Below, piece by piece: positions 704-54,650 of a DNA stretch of 64,000 nucleotides (position 1 is its first letter; each line of letters starts with the position of its first letter). The position numbers and the translations under genes were made by a program. The notes beneath the pieces are model-generated. The model saw nothing but the letters and a program-made list of their open reading frames with translations, was not told the origin of the DNA and made no database searches. This DNA comes from Escherichia phage CJY920: sequence record PQ349265.1; one strand, written 5' to 3'.

Positions 704-2476
704 TTAATTAACTCCAGTCGCATCAAATACACCAGGAGCAGTCGTGCTCGTAACAGGTGTCATATTATGAACGACAGTATTTTTCTTAATAACATTATTA
801 GTATTATTGATCGAAGGAGATACTTGTTGAACAGGAGCTTGCTGTGCTTTGTTCTTTTCTATTACCTGGACTTGTTTTGCTTCTGGCGATTTAGCAGAAG
901 TTTCAGGCTTGGCGTTAGGCTGATTTTTCTTGAGCTCTTGATAAGTAGCATCAATTTTAGAAAATCTAGCAGCAAGTTCCTTTTTAACTGCCGGTGAATT
1001 ATTTAAATCTGGGTCATCCATCCGTTTTTTAAGGTCTTCATAGGCAGCTTCAACTGATTTAACTGTTGAGTCTTTACTCATATCAGCCGAATCAGCATAT
1101 TTTTCAAAGCGAATCATCGCGGCGCGCGCTTCATTAGCCTTCATTAAAGCATTTTTTCTTTCTTCAGGTGAAAGTTGCTTTAATTTTTCTTCTTCTGCTG
1201 CACGTTCTTCGTCGGTAGTTAGTGCTTCTTTATTATCAACGCCACGAATCCAGTTAGATGCACGAGTTTTCCAGTTCGCAATTTTGTCTAGTCCTTCTGC
1301 TATTGGACCAAGGTCTCCATTCATTCGTTTATCTTGATAATTTGCAACTTTTTCCTGGTCTTCTTTATTGAGAGATGCTCCAGTAGAATTTTGGAAATTT
1401 TCTAGCGCTCTTCCTTCTACTTCATCAGCGGTATCCTTCATGCCAGGAATGACTCGAAGAATTGCAGCAGATAATTTAGCCATTCCAAGCTGAATAAGTT
1501 CTCCTAAATTATAAAGAACCTTTCCAAGCCCTTCTACAATAGCTACCGTCAAACCGCCCCAATCTCCCTCTTCCCAGAATTTTTTAATTTCATCAATAGA
1601 ACTAAAGATGCTCTGTAATAAAGGACCCCATGTTCCTGTTTCACTAGAGAATTTAGTAAAGTCTGTACTAAATAAATCCCATGCCTGCGAAAATTTATCT
1701 GACCAATATTTAAAGTGAACCATCAGCAGATCTATTCCAACAACAACAGCCAATATCATTGCAGTCATTTTAGCAGCTTCAATAGCAGCACTGACGGTGT
1801 ACTTAAATAGCATGCTTGATATTTTATCAGTAATTGAAATGGATTTTTTAAATCCAAAATCAACTGTCTTTGTTAATTTATCTAAAGCTTGAGATAATTT
1901 TAAGTTAAATGCGTCTTTTTTCTGTTTTTCTTCTGGCGATTCTTGTTTAGGTTCAACTGGCTGAGGGGTAGGGAAAAAATCAGCATCAGGATCATTATTA
2001 ACTGCTTCAGGAGCCGGTAATAAAGGACCCACAGATTCAGCTGTATCGTCCTCAACAACTTTAACAGGAATAGCGCTTTCAACCGTGGCTAAACTAGTTC
2101 CTGTTTGTTGAATTCCGGCTGTCTGGATTTTTTGCTCGAGTAAACTGGTTAATTTATCTAATTTGCTCCCGAGTGATTCACCGATTTCTTTATTAATATT
2201 GTTGCCAATTTCAACAGTTTCAGCAATTAACTCAGAACCAGCAGTAGTATCACTCACTGCACTTTCTACATTGTCAATTGCTCCAATTATTTCATTCGAT
2301 TTTTCTTCGACAGTTTGAGCAATTAATTCAGAAGCAGCTTGAGCATCATCCAATTTCGTAGATATATCGTTAAGTCCAGATAAAGTGTTAGAAGCGGATT
2401 TAGCCGCTTCCTGTGTTGGTTTATTATCTGAAATAACTTTTCTACGCATCGTTTGCATTTCTTGTGGCTTTTTCAT
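704..2476 (-). CDS. 29: tail length tape-measure / baseplate hub protein gp29
   Basis: 590-aa ORF with ATG start; length and position match T4 gp29; coiled-coil-rich sequence. Confidence 0.9.
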   Translation of the reverse strand: MKKPQEMQTMRRKVISDNKPTQEAAKSASNTLSGLNDISTKLDDAQAASELIAQTVEEKSNEIIGAIDNVESAVSDTTAGSELIAETVEIGNNINKEIGESLGSKLDKLTSLLEQKIQTAGIQQTGTSLATVESAIPVKVVEDDTAESVGPLLPAPEAVNNDPDADFFPTPQPVEPKQESPEEKQKKDAFNLKLSQALDKLTKTVDFGFKKSISITDKISSMLFKYTVSAAIEAAKMTAMILAVVVGIDLLMVHFKYWSDKFSQAWDLFSTDFTKFSSETGTWGPLLQSIFSSIDEIKKFWEEGDWGGLTVAIVEGLGKVLYNLGELIQLGMAKLSAAILRVIPGMKDTADEVEGRALENFQNSTGASLNKEDQEKVANYQDKRMNGDLGPIAEGLDKIANWKTRASNWIRGVDNKEALTTDEERAAEEEKLKQLSPEERKNALMKANEARAAMIRFEKYADSADMSKDSTVKSVEAAYEDLKKRMDDPDLNNSPAVKKELAARFSKIDATYQELKKNQPNAKPETSAKSPEAKQVQVIEKNKAQQAPVQQVSPSINNTNNVIKKNTVVHNMTPVTSTTAPGVFDATGVN

Positions 2477-12164: not shown

Positions 12165-13448
12165 TTATTCATCAACGATAATTTTTGGTAATTTAACACC
12201 TAATAAAACAGACAAATCTGAACGACCCGCCATTTTATCCATGTCTCCACCATCAATTATTCTTGCTTCTTTTTCATCTTTTGCTACAGTGTAAGGATTT
12301 GCAGATAAAGCATATCTAACCAATAAACCGATAGATGGTTGTAAGCTTTCTGGATCAACTACAACTTTAAATGCACCTACATGTTCAGGGTCATCTAAGT
12401 CAAGACCTTCTGTATACGGAGCATAGAAAATTGATCCAACAATTTCTTTTTCGCCAATATTTTCTACCACGCCAACGATTACATAATCTAATGGGCTGTT
12501 AGTATCGCAATAAAGCGGTAAACCATTAGCTAAGAACCCGTAGGCATTTTGTGAAAGATATTTATCATCTTCTGGTTTATGTTTTAACCAACCTGATGCA
12601 GCAAGAATCGCAGCGGCACGAGCTGAAGCAACACAGAACGTTGCTGTATAAGTTGATTCTTTTTGGATATGTGAAACCATTTCACATACCATTCGGTATA
12701 ATGAACGACCAGCTTCAGGTGCAGATGCATAACTCAAATCAATGAAACCGGTATCAGTAATTCCTGTAACTTTATAGCGTTTTGATACTGTAATCAAAGA
12801 CTGTAAAATATCTTTATTGATTTCATCCGCCATTTCAGTTGCAAGCAAATCTTCCAGGAAATTAGGAGCATCGAATCCATTTGCTTCTAAATCTTGTGCT
12901 AATTCAACTGTGATGCCAGTTTTAAGTTTACGAGATTTAACTGCGGTTTGCCATTTATTAATCTGGAATCTAGCATCAGCAATTTCGCTATCAGAGCTTT
13001 CAAATTTGCTTGTTACCGCAGCATCAGAAAATAGACGAACCTTTAAAAGAACAATTGCAATCTGAAGAGCTAATTCTAAATCACTTTCTTCAATGGTAGC
13101 AAATGGTGTATCTTCTAATACTTTATAAACGATATTATTATATTTGAATAAATCGCCTTTATTGAGAGTTAATTTAGACTCTTCTGTTAATTCTGTGATT
13201 TGTTCTCGGTCTACGTATCCAGCTTCGCCAGCGTAAGTAGCACCAGTTTTAAATGTAAATTCGTTATCTGGGTTAAGGTATTTGATACCATAAAAAGCAG
13301 CAACAGGTTGATTAGTTCTTTGCGTTGCTACAATGTCAGAATATATTAATTTAGTTGTAGCGCGAGTCAAAGCAACGAGATTTGGGCGACCGATTGAGTT
13401 GCTATTCGTTGTGGTTGATTCGCGCAGAAGTTCGTTGATTTTAGCCAT
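12165..13448 (-). CDS. 24: head vertex protein gp24
   Basis: 427-aa ORF; paralog-like similarity to gp23; T4 length and synteny. Confidence 0.9.
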   Translation of the reverse strand: MAKINELLRESTTTNSNSIGRPNLVALTRATTKLIYSDIVATQRTNQPVAAFYGIKYLNPDNEFTFKTGATYAGEAGYVDREQITELTEESKLTLNKGDLFKYNNIVYKVLEDTPFATIEESDLELALQIAIVLLKVRLFSDAAVTSKFESSDSEIADARFQINKWQTAVKSRKLKTGITVELAQDLEANGFDAPNFLEDLLATEMADEINKDILQSLITVSKRYKVTGITDTGFIDLSYASAPEAGRSLYRMVCEMVSHIQKESTYTATFCVASARAAAILAASGWLKHKPEDDKYLSQNAYGFLANGLPLYCDTNSPLDYVIVGVVENIGEKEIVGSIFYAPYTEGLDLDDPEHVGAFKVVVDPESLQPSIGLLVRYALSANPYTVAKDEKEARIIDGGDMDKMAGRSDLSVLLGVKLPKIIVDE

Positions 13449-51433: not shown

Positions 51434-51817
51434 ATGTATAAAGTGTACGCAGATTATCAGGCTAATCCATCTAAAAAGCCGAATTGTCAAATAGGATGGG
51501 CTCATGATACTTTGCTTGAAGCAGTAGATGCTGCTCAAAAATTAGGATATAAATATGTAGAGATTGTTCAACTACCATCAGGAACAGTTATTACTCTTGA
51601 AGAGTTCAATAATATTAAACCGAACTTTTTACTTTTTGCGGGTGATAATTATTATCCTCGTGGTGGATATTCTGATTTAATCGCGAAAGCCGCTACTGAA
51701 GATGAACTTCGTAATATTATCAAAGAAAATGAAAATAAACCGATGTATGGTTCTAATCGTTTTGACTGGTGGCAAATTGTAAATGCCCATACTCATACTA
51801 TTGTTGATGAAGGCTGA
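51434..51817 (+). CDS. hypothetical protein
   Basis: Track ORF starts upstream at 51395; ATG 51434 with AGGTGA RBS gives 127 aa. Confidence 0.5.
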   Translation: MYKVYADYQANPSKKPNCQIGWAHDTLLEAVDAAQKLGYKYVEIVQLPSGTVITLEEFNNIKPNFLLFAGDNYYPRGGYSDLIAKAATEDELRNIIKENENKPMYGSNRFDWWQIVNAHTHTIVDEG

Positions 51818-51819
51818 TA

Positions 51820-52107
51820 ATGATTCTTTATGCTAAAGTATCGTCCGTTGAAAATGGATATAAATATGATCAAGATGCGGCTAAAGCCTTGATTAATGAT
51901 TATGGCATTTTAACATGTTTTGAAGTTGAAAAGGTTTACATTGACCGTTCATCTTCTCAAGTTAAATTAGTAAAGGAAGACCGTAAATTTAATACAGTAA
52001 ATTTTGATTTCTTTATTGAAACAGAAAAAGGTCCTCTTGAATATGATATTTTCAAGAATCCTTTGAGTCTTGAATGCATCGTAAACATGTATTATCATAA
52101 ATGGTAA
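51820..52107 (+). CDS. hypothetical protein
   Basis: 95-aa ORF with ATG. Confidence 0.5.
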   Translation: MILYAKVSSVENGYKYDQDAAKALINDYGILTCFEVEKVYIDRSSSQVKLVKEDRKFNTVNFDFFIETEKGPLEYDIFKNPLSLECIVNMYYHKW

Positions 52108-52204
52108 ATATGCTTTAAGAATTATTTGTTATTATTAACTCATATCGCACTGATTAATACCCTCTATCATCAAGGGTTCTTGCTTGAGAGCCTTTGTTAA
52201 TAAT

Positions 52205-52277
52205 TGGGAATTAGCCAAGTTGGTAAGGCATAGCACTTTGACTGCTAGATGCAAAGGTTCAAGTCCTTTATTCCCAG
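52205..52277 (+). tRNA. tRNA-Gln (anticodon TTG)
   Basis: Acceptor tgggaat/attccca; anticodon stem tagca/tgcta with loop ctTTGac; T-loop ttcaagt. Confidence 0.8.
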
Positions 52278-52278
52278 C

Positions 52279-52362
52279 GCGAGAATGGCCAAATTGGTAA
52301 AGGCACAGCACTTAAAATGCTGCGGAATGATTTCCTTGTGGGTTCGAGTCCCACTTCTCGTA
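52279..52362 (+). tRNA. tRNA-Leu (anticodon TAA), long variable arm
   Basis: Acceptor gcgagaa/ttctcgt; anticodon stem cagca/tgctg with loop ctTAAaa; T-loop ttcgagt; CCA encoded at 52363-52365. Confidence 0.8.
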
Positions 52363-52370
52363 CCAAATTT

Positions 52371-52442
<72 letters not shown>

Positions 52443-52454
52443 AAATTTAATTTA

Positions 52455-52527
52455 CTCCGTGTAGCTCAGTAGGTAGAGCACCTCACTTGTAATGAGGACG
52501 TCGGCGGTTCGATTCCGTCAATCAGCA
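52455..52527 (+). tRNA. tRNA-Thr-like (anticodon TGT) with non-complementary 5-prime acceptor strand; possible hybrid or pseudogene
   Basis: Canonical D, anticodon (cctca/ctTGTaa/tgagg) and T arms, but 5-prime ctccgtg cannot pair with 3-prime aatcagc. Confidence 0.5.
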
Positions 52528-52533
52528 TATCAA

Positions 52534-52607
52534 GGCCCTGTAGCTCAACGGTTAGCAGCAGTCCCCTCATAAGGGAAAGGTTACCAGTTCGAATCTGGTC
52601 TGGGTCA
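52534..52607 (+). tRNA. tRNA with CAT anticodon (Ile-2/Met type; T4 tRNA-Ile position)
   Basis: Acceptor ggccctg/ctgggtc (one U-U mismatch); anticodon loop ctCATaa; T arm accag-ttcgaat-ctggt; D stem imperfect. Confidence 0.6.
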
Positions 52608-52648
52608 TATTTTGAGAACATAAATACTCTTAGAAATAGGAGATATTT

Positions 52649-53215
52649 ATGTTCCATTACACTTATAAAATAACAAATAAAATTAATAATAAAATTTATA
52701 TTGGTGTGCATTCTACCGAAAATTTAGATGATGGATATATGGGTTCTGGTAAATTATTAAAAAGAGCCCAAGATAAGTATGGTATAGAAAATTTTTCTAA
52801 AGAAATATTAGAGTATTTTGATGATAAAGAATCTATGCTTGAAGCCGAGAAAAATATTGTCACAGAAGAGTTTTTAAATAGATCAGATGTGTATAATTTA
52901 AAACTTGGCGGTGAAGGTGGATGGGACCATTTAAATATTCCTGGGATGCTAAACCGGAAGAAAGATGCTAGCTTAAAAGGAGCTAAATCGTTTAAGTCAC
53001 GGTTTGAAAATGATATTTTACTTCAAGAAAAATATCGTAAAATTGGTTCAAATGTATTTAAACGTTTGTGGTCAACTCCTGAATATAGGGAAAAATTTTT
53101 AAATAATAGCAGATTTTTAAATAAGCATCATACTCCTGAAACTATTAATAAAATGAAAGAAATTCACGCTAAAATAATCACCAGAAAGGAGAAAAGAATT
53201 CCCAATTTGGTATGA
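52649..53215 (+). CDS. segB: GIY-YIG homing endonuclease SegB-like (188 aa; apparent C-terminal continuation in another frame at 53212-53313)
   Basis: YTYKITNKINNKIYIGVH...GYMGSG core; WSTPEYREKF repeat; lies inside the tRNA cluster as T4 segB does. Confidence 0.75.
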   Translation: MFHYTYKITNKINNKIYIGVHSTENLDDGYMGSGKLLKRAQDKYGIENFSKEILEYFDDKESMLEAEKNIVTEEFLNRSDVYNLKLGGEGGWDHLNIPGMLNRKKDASLKGAKSFKSRFENDILLQEKYRKIGSNVFKRLWSTPEYREKFLNNSRFLNKHHTPETINKMKEIHAKIITRKEKRIPNLV

Positions 53216-53313
53216 TGTGGATTCATTCATTAGATGAAAAAGTTTCTAAACGTATTAAGAAAACTGACCCAATTCCAGAAGGATGGTTTAAAGATCGAAA
53301 AATGAAATTTTAA
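53212..53313 (+). CDS. 33-codon ORF, likely frameshifted C-terminal tail of segB
   Basis: ATG overlaps the segB stop (gtATGAtg); MMWIHSLDEKVSKRIKKTDPIPEGWFKDRKMKF; 188+33 = 221 aa, the length I recall for T4 SegB. Confidence 0.35.
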   Translation: MMWIHSLDEKVSKRIKKTDPIPEGWFKDRKMKF

Positions 53314-53316
53314 TTA

Positions 53317-53390
<74 letters not shown>

Positions 53391-53393
53391 CCA

Positions 53394-53710
53394 AACAAGA
53401 AACCGGGTCGCTACCGGTAAGTCGTCGGACTGATGTTCCCTGGGTAAGGAATTGTGTTAATAAATCTTTATGATTTGTTGATGCCCTCTTACATCACAGC
53501 AGAAACGGCGCACAGAATTATCGATTCGAGGAAATATCTTTGCCGTAAGCCGAGTAGCGTTTTTGACGGAACGTTCGGATATGGTCGAGATATGGGCCTT
53601 TTAAAAATATTGAGTAGCGTCAACTACTTAATAACCGGGTTCGAATCCCGGCGTTTCGTACAAACACTTGCCTTAGCAGGTGGAACCCCGACAAGGTTGC
53701 CGCAAGGCTT
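53394..53710 (+). ncRNA. candidate small stable RNA region with tRNA-like elements (position of T4 rnaC/rnaD-type RNAs)
   Basis: No credible ORF; tRNA-like T-arm ccgggttcgaatcccgg at about 53633-53649; several hairpins; ends at a strong terminator. Confidence 0.35.
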
Positions 53711-53738
53711 AGCCCCGACCAAAAGGTTGGGGCTTTTT
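53711..53738 (+). terminator. rho-independent terminator
   Basis: agcccc-gaccaaaaggtt-ggggct followed by ttttt. Confidence 0.6.
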
Positions 53739-53851
53739 GGTATCTAGGCCTTTCTGGACCTCTCTAGGCATCATTTAGTTTCTACCCTTTATAATCCTTT
53801 AATTGCCCCTCCCTGCCCTAGAATTCCCTAAAACTTTTTAAAAAATTTTTC

Positions 53852-53892
53852 ACAAAACTGTTTACATCCCTGTTCTTCCATGGTACTATACA
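53852..53892 (+). promoter_or_regulatory. T4-type early promoter
   Basis: GTTTAC at 53860-53865, 18 nt spacer, TACTAT at 53884-53889. Confidence 0.5.
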
Positions 53893-53932
53893 ACTATCAA
53901 CTACTGATACAGAAAACAACTTGGAGAATAAA

Positions 53933-54196
53933 ATGGATAATTACGGCGAACTGTTCAACTTCTTTATGAAATGTGTTTCAGAAGATTTCGGTCGTACTGT
54001 GAATGATATTAAAGTTATCGGTCCTGACCATCCGATGTTTGAAACTTACGCAGTAATGGGTAATGAAGACGGCCAGTGGTATACTGTAAAAGTTGTGATT
54101 AATATGTTCACAGCAGAAGGTTATGTTAAACTGTCTTCTAAAGTTTACCACGATAACGACGAAATCGCAGAAGAATATTTCAATAATATGAAATAA
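53933..54196 (+). CDS. hypothetical early protein
   Basis: Track ORF starts at TTG 53921; ATG 53933 with GGAG RBS gives 87 aa. Confidence 0.5.
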   Translation: MDNYGELFNFFMKCVSEDFGRTVNDIKVIGPDHPMFETYAVMGNEDGQWYTVKVVINMFTAEGYVKLSSKVYHDNDEIAEEYFNNMK

Positions 54197-54230
54197 GTTT
54201 ACACAGGCTCATGATTGAGATATTATGAGC
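54190..54230 (+). promoter_or_regulatory. T4-type early promoter
   Basis: GTTTAC at 54197-54202, 18 nt spacer, TATTAT at 54221-54226. Confidence 0.5.
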
Positions 54231-54251
54231 CTATAACTTGAGGAGAACATA

Positions 54252-54650
54252 ATGAATATTGAAGATAAAGAAATGCGAGAGTTATATAATTCATTAACAC
54301 CCGAACAACAAAAAGCTGCCAAAGAATTAGAGAAAGCTCTTAGTTTAAGCTTGACAAAAACTGATTGGGCCGCCGTGTATGAAGAAAAAATGAGATCGGA
54401 AAATGAAGCTGTCGAGAGAAATGAATGGATTGTAGACACCAAGATTAGTTCTGATGGATGCTCTGTTGAAGTGTCGGCCGTAATTAAAGGTACTCATGGC
54501 GAAAAATCATGGGGTTGGCATAATGAGGCAAACAAATATATTGTTCTCTCAACGTCAAAAACTTATGGTCAAAAGGTTCCTGTATCCAAAGCTATTATTA
54601 AGCAAGCTCAATGGGAAGCCAATGAAATTTGCCTCGCAAAAATGAAATAA
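54252..54650 (+). CDS. hypothetical early protein
   Basis: 132-aa ORF; GAGGAG RBS. Confidence 0.55.
   Translation: MNIEDKEMRELYNSLTPEQQKAAKELEKALSLSLTKTDWAAVYEEKMRSENEAVERNEWIVDTKISSDGCSVEVSAVIKGTHGEKSWGWHNEANKYIVLSTSKTYGQKVPVSKAIIKQAQWEANEICLAKMK

Follow-up and report, generated by a model that had tools for sequence, protein, structure and literature searches.

Counterparts of the T4 stable RNAs rnaD and rnaC downstream of tRNA-Arg in Escherichia phage CJY920, and a covariation-supported cloverleaf model of rnaC

The DNA analysed here, which we call the window, is a stretch of 64,000 nucleotides from Escherichia phage CJY920 (PQ349265.1), and belongs to a T4-like phage (Tequatrovirus). On the + strand ARAGORN calls tRNAs for Gln, Leu, Gly, Met(CAU) and Arg(UCU), the last of which ends at 53393. 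A sequence resembling a MotA box lies at 52109, upstream of tRNA-Gln. The DNA that follows tRNA-Arg is best explained, with high confidence, as orthologues of T4 rnaD (species 2 RNA) and T4 rnaC (species 1 RNA), followed by the 3' trailer of the tRNA operon and an intrinsic terminator. The tRNA-Arg gene is the last true tRNA of the operon, and its 3' CCA stands 1 nt ahead of rnaD. The locus is laid out as follows:

53317..53393, + strand: tRNA-Arg(UCU), called by ARAGORN and scored at 69.2 bits by the Rfam tRNA model
53395..53514, + strand: rnaD (T4 species 2 RNA), 120 nt, transferred from the T4 annotation
53454..53747, + strand: 97-codon open reading frame with a GTG start, judged spurious from frame comparison, PHROG and Pfam
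53515..53520, + strand: spacer of 6 nt (GAATTA) between rnaD and rnaC, mapped from the T4 annotation
53521..53660, + strand: rnaC (T4 species 1 RNA), 140 nt, mapped from the T4 annotation and scored at 163.9 bits by the covariance model R1 described below
53661..53710, + strand: operon 3' trailer, supported by the folding of 53661-53742
53711..53739, + strand: intrinsic terminator, a 10-bp stem with the loop AAAA (hairpin 53711-53734), then UUUUU

An alignment of the window to NC_000866 runs base for base through T4 rnaD and T4 rnaC and on into the terminator, at an identity that we estimate at about 97% over the two RNAs; the mean column identity of the whole alignment, divergent tRNA-Arg included, is 89%. 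Both T4 counterparts, rnaD at 71053-71171 and rnaC at 70908-71046 of NC_000866, are annotated as misc_RNA ("small, stable RNA") adjoining tRNA-Arg, and the bounds given above for the window are coordinates transferred from that annotation. The order tRNA-Arg, rnaD, rnaC, terminator, all on one strand, is that of T4. Relative to T4 the window has a small number of substitutions and, within an internal loop of rnaC, one additional G; rnaC and rnaD are 140 and 120 nt long here, as compared with 139 and 119 nt in T4. The tRNA-Arg next to them is the allele of RB32/RB33 and not that of T4. In RB33 an ncRNA named rnaD ("species II RNA") and then rnaC are annotated at the matching place. Conservation extends widely: 783 phage records were matched in a megablast search with 53300-53900, and 813 in a more sensitive search with 53394-53746.

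A preliminary description of the window, made from the letters alone, had marked the DNA after tRNA-Arg as a candidate stretch of RNA genes and had proposed T4-type small stable RNAs there. Alignment, gene order and the RB33 annotation identify these as true orthologues, and the stretch is real in the sense that it is structured, conserved and shared with the 813 matching records. The elements that the description had singled out are present as well: the perfect tRNA-like T arm is located at 53635-53651, further hairpins occur in rnaD, in rnaC and in the trailer, and the strong terminator is a 10-bp hairpin with seven GC pairs (53711-53734) followed by TTTTT. In terms of discovery this is a locus already known, and the window is a rediscovery of it: the T4 RNAs have been on record as small stable RNAs since the 1970s, and the T4 annotation has included rnaC and rnaD for decades. 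The T4 RNAs are transcribed and stable (PMC3014915; PMC9697503), and a 2022 transcriptome study with northern-blot validation found both to accumulate late (PMC9697503). What is added here is a covariation-backed model of rnaC, an extension of its family to about ten genera and a working covariance model.

Curated models do not recognize the two RNAs. ARAGORN calls no tRNA in 53394-53746, and the tRNA model RF00005 has no match there at E values up to 10. A search of 51800-54300 with Rfam 15 in permissive mode returned tRNAs only, with no family at threshold in 53394-53746; the sub-threshold matches in that stretch are chance matches to isrK (16.2 bits against a threshold of 50) and anti-hemB (14.4 against 49.5). 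Folding energies were compared with those of dinucleotide shuffles. On the sense strand rnaD (53395-53514) has a z score of -2.15, with 7 of 200 shuffles as good, while none of 200 is as good for rnaC (53521-53660; z = -3.23) or for the trailer (53661-53742; z = -3.39). Folding of the antisense strand does not stand out from shuffles (z = +0.23 and -1.13).

An open reading frame of 97 codons overlies both RNAs, and many phage records carry a "hypothetical protein" over the rnaD/rnaC DNA, which raises the question of whether the stretch encodes a small protein, either this frame or one of the shorter ones. The frame has a GTG start preceded, with a 3-nt spacer, by TAAGGA, and its product matches two PHROG families. 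The earlier judgement that no convincing open reading frame is present stands as far as conservation goes, but its statement that a ribosome-binding site is missing does not, given the TAAGGA. The frame exists in the window because of a single nucleotide: the window has GGG at 53594-53596 where T4, RB33 and Killian have GG, and the extra G joins two stop-free stretches. We compared the equivalent DNA of 13 related loci, in which forward stop-free stretches run from 40 to 85 codons (the longest, of 85, in the locus L020) and in most relatives the two stretches, of 51 and 57 codons, do not share a frame; none of the 13 keeps the 97-codon frame. The two PHROGs are tiny and separate, each covering one half of the product (phrog_24262 residues 3-48, phrog_28391 residues 52-97), and most likely gather similar miscalled open reading frames of other genomes. 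The product has no match in Pfam, and substitutions across the stretch obey the rules of base pairing, not those of codons. By this comparison the 97-codon frame is an accident of the window sequence and no gene; the frame analysis effectively refutes a protein-coding reading, to which we give next to no credence.

To delimit the rnaC family, BLAST searches were seeded with the window, Edwardsiella phage PEi20 and one IMG/VR variant. The family spans about ten genera of T4-like phages, well beyond the T-even phages. Karamvirus and Gelderlandvirus carry rnaC between tRNA-Trp and tRNA-Gly, with spacers of tRNA-like length, and in Kanagawavirus it lies between protein-coding genes with no adjoining tRNA. 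It is also found in Moonvirus, Mosigvirus, Gaprivervirus, Dhakavirus, Marfavirus-like Klebsiella phages and an unclassified Citrobacter phage. A covariance model (R1) built from 25 rnaC sequences separates the family sharply from other sequence: true matches score 128-164 bits and everything else in about 2 Mb of sequence scores 37 bits or less. The model yields 32 distinct full-length copies. It does not match rnaD, and the idea that rnaD is a second copy of rnaC was rejected on that ground. Two Dhakavirus genomes (L024 and L025) cleanly lack rnaC and one Mosigvirus has a chimera in its place, which indicates that rnaC is dispensable; its absence in some lineages counts against an essential role. 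Deletions and chimeras are frequent at the rnaD/rnaC locus.

Comparison of these sequences predicts that rnaC is a tRNA-shaped cloverleaf, and the prediction is supported by covariation. Its parts in the window are:

53522..53528 with 53652-53658, + strand: acceptor-like stem of 7 bp (CGAUUCG with CGUUUCG), from covariation
53529..53599, + strand: long arm of about 70 nt in the position of the D arm, from covariation and RNAalifold
53563..53568, + strand: loop L1, UUGACG, the apical loop of the long arm, from covariation
53608..53633, + strand: "anticodon-like" hairpin with a 10-bp stem (53608-53617 with 53624-53633), 9 of 10 pairs covarying
53618..53623, + strand: loop L2, CGUCAA, the 6-nt loop of the "anticodon-like" hairpin, from covariation
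53635..53651, + strand: T arm, CCGGG-UUCGAAU-CCCGG (ccgggttcgaatcccgg), from pattern and covariation
53659..53663, + strand: 3' tail UACAA after the acceptor strand, from 32 distinct sequences

In the alignment of 25 sequences, 92.4% of the cells of the predicted fold are paired and 17 of its 36 pairs have changes on both sides. On four of the five measures none of 500 shuffles reached the observed values, and when the pairing partners were slid along the alignment only 34-45% were paired. An independent RNAalifold fold of the nine sequences that diverge most gave the same cloverleaf. The third pair of the acceptor-like stem is A-U in the Tequatrovirus group and G-C elsewhere (pair 4/140; GC in 14 sequences, AU in 11), while pairs 4 and 5 are U.U mismatches in every rnaC sequence. 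The long arm begins directly after the 5' strand of the acceptor-like stem with 3 basal pairs (53529-53531 with 53597-53599) and ends in an apical stem of 5 bp (53558-53562 with 53569-53573), all five of which covary. Beside its base is a conserved unpaired GG (53595-53596), and the extra G, which among the sequences compared occurs in the window only, falls in the run GGG at 53594-53596. The T stem has 5 bp with a covarying middle pair (UA in 12 sequences, GC in 10, AU in 1), and the T loop across the family is of the tRNA type, UUCRARU. The SegB cleavage motif is RAWTSGAAC (PMC13096335), and the rnaC T arm, read as DNA, fits it.

The likeness to a canonical tRNA (RF00005) covers a 7-bp acceptor stem set on a 5-bp T stem, the loop UUCGAAU, the four-way cloverleaf and the position in tRNA clusters. 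There are also differences. rnaC has no D arm and carries the 70-nt arm in its place; the loop in the anticodon position has 6 nt, not 7; the acceptor stem holds the tandem U.U; and the tail reads UACA as compared with NCCA. Among the 32 distinct sequences the tail is UACAA in 27, UACAG in 1 and UCCAA in 4, the last being of the Marfavirus type. According to the T4 annotation the mature 3' end follows UA (53660). CCA may be added to rnaC after transcription; the T4 tRNA-Ser precursor, for example, has UAA in place of CCA (PMC11143913). With no anticodon and mostly no CCA end, rnaC should not be chargeable. Automatic annotation has labelled rnaC of phage KKP_3262 as a 96-nt "tRNA-Phe". The corresponding ARAGORN-style reading as a long tRNA, in which an internal ACGRAACG pairs with the 3' strand, was tried and rejected because a G.U in T4 against an A.C in Karamvirus breaks that pairing, whereas in the pairing to the 5' end A-U is cleanly swapped for G-C.

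A weaker hint concerns the tertiary fold. In tRNA, G18 and G19 dock on the T loop. The tRNA motif of the rnaC T loop is lost in one lineage only (L162, L213 and L224, which have UGCAUGC), and the same lineage alone has CG in place of the conserved GG. This joint loss would fit a docking of the GG on the T loop as in tRNA.

Of the loops of rnaC, the two of 6 nt are the best conserved. L1 and L2 are exact complements over their full 6 nt. The pair of loops reads UUGACG/CGUCAA in 28 distinct sequences and UUGGCG/CGCCAA in 4, from Marfavirus-type Klebsiella phages. In the 25-sequence alignment the helix that they could form is 100% paired, with one pair A-U in 22 sequences and G-C in 3. Both loops are otherwise invariant across genera while the stems below them vary freely. 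That the complementary loops change together, from A-U to G-C at the predicted position, suggests that L1 and L2 may form a 6-bp loop-loop kiss, which could be intramolecular or could join two molecules. The support comes from a single evolutionary event, in one clade. A kiss within one molecule requires a sharp bend in the long arm. To look for other loop states we scanned IMG/VR and a metagenome collection with degenerate patterns, three of which were too loose and gave mostly chance matches before filtering by R1 and regular expressions. After filtering, these scans revealed no third loop state and added only the variants L145, L162/L213, L224 and L236. TAR-TAR* and ColE1 RNA I-RNA II are kissing complexes with fully paired loops of 6-7 nt. 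rnaC shares with them the complementarity of the loops over their full length (6 nt) and differs in that both loops lie in one molecule of 140 nt and that the pairing is deduced from one compensatory change.

On another reading the two RNAs act in trans, as small RNAs that regulate mRNAs of the phage or of its host by base pairing. Conserved single-stranded segments are present, and one paper refers to "small regulatory RNAs" (PMC9697503). The best-conserved loops of rnaC are, however, complementary to each other and not to an outside target, and the terminator hairpin with its U-tail lies in the trailer, beyond the annotated 3' end of rnaC. A search for antisense targets found no complementarity of 13 nt or more beyond chance in the 64-kb window, the single 14-mer including the window-specific G, and rnaD and rnaC have no match in E. 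coli genomes. We regard a regulatory role of this kind as very unlikely.

The second RNA differs from rnaC in distribution and in pattern of conservation. rnaD was found only in Tequatrovirus, Mosigvirus, Dhakavirus and Gaprivervirus. Its RNAalifold consensus, from 16 sequences, has 32 pairs, 10 of them with compensatory changes. A 5' hairpin (53402-53418) carries an invariant 7-nt loop, GUCGCUA, and an invariant closing stem of 7 bp (53421-53427 with 53506-53513) places the 3' end beside this hairpin. Between the strands of the closing stem is a long irregular arm, the apical part of which (about 53442-53495) is lineage-specific and occurs in at least three unrelated versions. By this comparison rnaD is structured, with a core that does not vary and an apical hairpin that lineages have exchanged.

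The trailer and terminator, 78 nt in all (53661-53738), lie outside both annotated RNAs. The trailer forms small hairpins at 53665-53682, 53684-53698 and 53699-53708, and the terminator has what is typical of intrinsic terminators, a GC-rich hairpin directly followed by a U run where a transcription unit ends. The terminator is conserved in relatives, and both it and the trailer are kept even in the two Dhakavirus genomes without rnaC. In T4, rnaC and rnaD are co-transcribed with the tRNAs, and the primary transcript of about 1.75 kb ends after the species I gene (PMC2330249). According to the literature, transcription of the operon starts at the promoter upstream of tRNA-Gln, gives one long precursor and stops at the hairpin and U run at 53711-53739. 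The host's tRNA-maturation machinery would cut this precursor into tRNAs, rnaD and rnaC. A stacked acceptor stem and T arm form the minimal substrate of RNase P, and in the older literature the processing of species 1 RNA is dependent on RNase P. We infer that this enzyme would cut on the 5' side of the acceptor-like stem, since rnaC keeps the minimal substrate and, in Karamvirus, a tRNA-like spacing; the tRNA-like spacers in Karamvirus and Gelderlandvirus fit excision by tRNA-processing enzymes. After that, exonuclease trimming would leave rnaD ending at its closing stem and rnaC at the nucleotides just past its acceptor stem, and the trailer would be discarded.

This arrangement could mean that the RNAs matter only in cis, as stabilizing or processing modules that shield tRNA-Arg and the segB RNA from 3' exonucleases or that order the cleavage of the precursor. 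The co-transcription with tRNAs would suit such modules, as would the location of T-even rnaD and rnaC as the last genes of the operon, immediately ahead of the terminator, and the constant retention of trailer and terminator. Other genera do not fit this pattern: rnaC is in mid-cluster, between tRNA-Trp and tRNA-Gly, in Karamvirus and Gelderlandvirus, and stands among protein-coding genes in Kanagawavirus. Moreover, both RNAs accumulate late as discrete stable species (PMC9697503). On balance a purely cis-acting role seems unlikely to us.

The acceptor/T-arm/elbow face of tRNA, which rnaC retains, is recognized by RNase P, by the enzymes that add CCA or modify tRNA and by several toxins directed at tRNA. 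As a tRNA mimic, rnaC could occupy or divert a host protein that recognizes this half of a tRNA, for instance a processing enzyme or a defence nuclease that attacks tRNA; rnaD could contribute an effect specific to the host strain. This is our best guess at a function, and we hold it only tentatively. It is favoured by the retained tRNA face, by the nature of the locus and by an evolution experiment. The tRNA locus of T-even phages is an anti-defence locus (PMC13096335). When phage BW1 was adapted to E. coli ECOR34, one convergent SNP (T to C) arose in the rnaD/rnaC region in 3 of 3 lines, with a change in relative bacterial growth from 0.17 to 0.98 (PMC12685909). The SNP might instead act through DNA or through transcription.

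A tRNA-like acceptor/T-arm module fused to another domain in a stable noncoding RNA has precedents in YrlA (RF02553) and tmRNA, whose tRNA-like domains are handled by tRNA enzymes. The resemblance is one of concept. The YrlA model does not match rnaC, its only match in the region being on tRNA-Gly at 18.3 bits (gathering threshold 69), and E. coli K-12 is not known to have a Ro protein partner. In rnaC there is no reading frame for a tag, and in most cases a CCA end is lacking. A more specific version of the mimic model would make rnaC a non-chargeable decoy or blocker, its lower half locked by the kiss, and rnaD a companion whose apical hairpin is tuned to host strains, the two forming a counter-defence pair. 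We consider this version doubtful.

The tRNA-like shape of rnaC also admits another account, that the two RNAs are remnants of decaying tRNAs or pieces of spacer, which persist only as structured by-products of operon processing and without a function of their own. rnaC is, after all, tRNA-shaped, located within tRNA clusters and missing in some lineages; the locus is prone to deletions and chimeras; and 50 years have passed without a function being found. Yet the most constrained parts of rnaC are those that are not tRNA-like: in about ten genera the two 6-nt loops, both U.U mismatches and the tail stay fixed, and the stems covary. The core of rnaD, likewise, is invariant in 16 sequences. Compensatory changes are not expected of a relic, and this origin for the present-day RNAs appears to us decidedly improbable.

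The comparative model of rnaC turns a fifty-year-old question about the function of T4 RNAs into a set of testable features: a cloverleaf in which the U.U pairs are fixed, a concerted change in two complementary loops, tails that read either ACA or CCA, and a T-loop motif that was lost along with the GG. Rfam has no family for rnaC or rnaD, and the covariance model would correct the spurious protein and "tRNA-Phe" annotations that now cover these genes. The RNAs are located in a counter-defence locus, and the presence or absence of rnaC varies by lineage. One evolution experiment suggests that the rnaD/rnaC region helps to determine growth on a particular host strain (PMC12685909). If the decoy model were true, the two oldest orphan RNAs of T4 would be an RNA-based counter-defence pair.

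The segment upstream of rnaD, the counterpart of T4 species 2 RNA, varies among the phages compared. A 345-nt ORF, RB69ORF150c, sits between tRNA-Arg and rnaD in RB69 (L026, 961-1305), and despite this insertion rnaD opens with the same AAGAAGCCGGG sequence, so rnaD need not adjoin tRNA-Arg. In two contigs of the Marfavirus type, some 65 nt of conserved GC-rich sequence (GGGGUGG ... CCCACUCC) come between the upstream tRNA and rnaC, the counterpart of T4 species 1 RNA:

L076, about 1869-1945, minus strand: GC-rich stretch
L082, about 12329-12405, minus strand: GC-rich stretch

This stretch may be another small structured RNA, occupying the position that rnaD holds in T-even phages.

Variation within rnaC itself is illustrated by three related loci:

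L162, 5957-6099: variant rnaC
L213, 2498-2640: variant rnaC
L224, 4200-4342: variant rnaC

In these copies the T loop reads UGCAUGC, not UUCGAAU, and the conserved unpaired GG has become CG; the U.U pairs and both complementary loops are retained. The rnaC of the window has one G more in an internal loop (GGG versus GG, 53594-53596), found only in the window among the sequences compared, and this extra G gives rise to the 97-codon ORF. "Hypothetical protein" features overlie rnaD and rnaC in many other GenBank records, and PHROGs 24262 and 28391 appear to have been made from such ORFs. In Enterobacter phage KKP_3262 (L005, 2547-2642) rnaC carries the label "tRNA-Phe(gaa)", with a length of 96 nt.

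The operon of the window has also been altered upstream. Relative to T4 and RB33, 170 bp have been deleted from the tRNA cluster. At a TAGCTCAG common to tRNA-Pro and tRNA-Thr, the deletion fuses the 5' acceptor strand of the former to the body of the latter, and the product is a chimeric pseudo-tRNA (52455-52527) in which the Rfam match is confined to model positions 8-63; tRNA-Pro, tRNA-Ser and tRNA-Thr are all missing. Two features follow:

Window 52534-52607: tRNA-Met(CAT), called by ARAGORN
Window 52649-53313: segB homing-endonuclease gene, split by a frameshift near 53171

The T4 counterpart of the first is annotated as tRNA-Ile; a CAU anticodon, once modified, is read as Ile, and the difference is one of naming only. 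The segB gene is divided into two ORFs of 188 and 33 aa because its A-run is one A short (GCTA-AAATAATC versus GCCAAAAATAATC in T4), which either marks segB as a pseudogene or is an error in the sequencing.

The DNA of the rnaC T arm (53635-53651), GTTCGAATC, with reverse complement GATTCGAAC, fits RAWTSGAAC, the SegB cleavage motif described for T6 (PMC13096335). This match makes rnaC a likely site of breakage and recombination. A search with R1, the rnaC covariance model built from 25 sequences, found no rnaC in two Dhakavirus loci (L024 and L025, 1500-1700 in each), where the trailer and terminator lie directly 3' of rnaD; Dhakavirus LHE83 (L028) has both rnaD and rnaC, with about 75 nt extra between tRNA-Arg and rnaD. 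Mosigvirus AV109 (L006, 2451-2620) has lost rnaD and most of rnaC, and its gene annotated as tRNA-Asn is a chimera: from the T loop on, its 3' half comes from the 3' end of rnaC, and the trailer and terminator then follow as usual. In T2L the site that SegB prefers is tRNA-Asn (PMC2330249), so this chimera looks like the scar of a repaired break.
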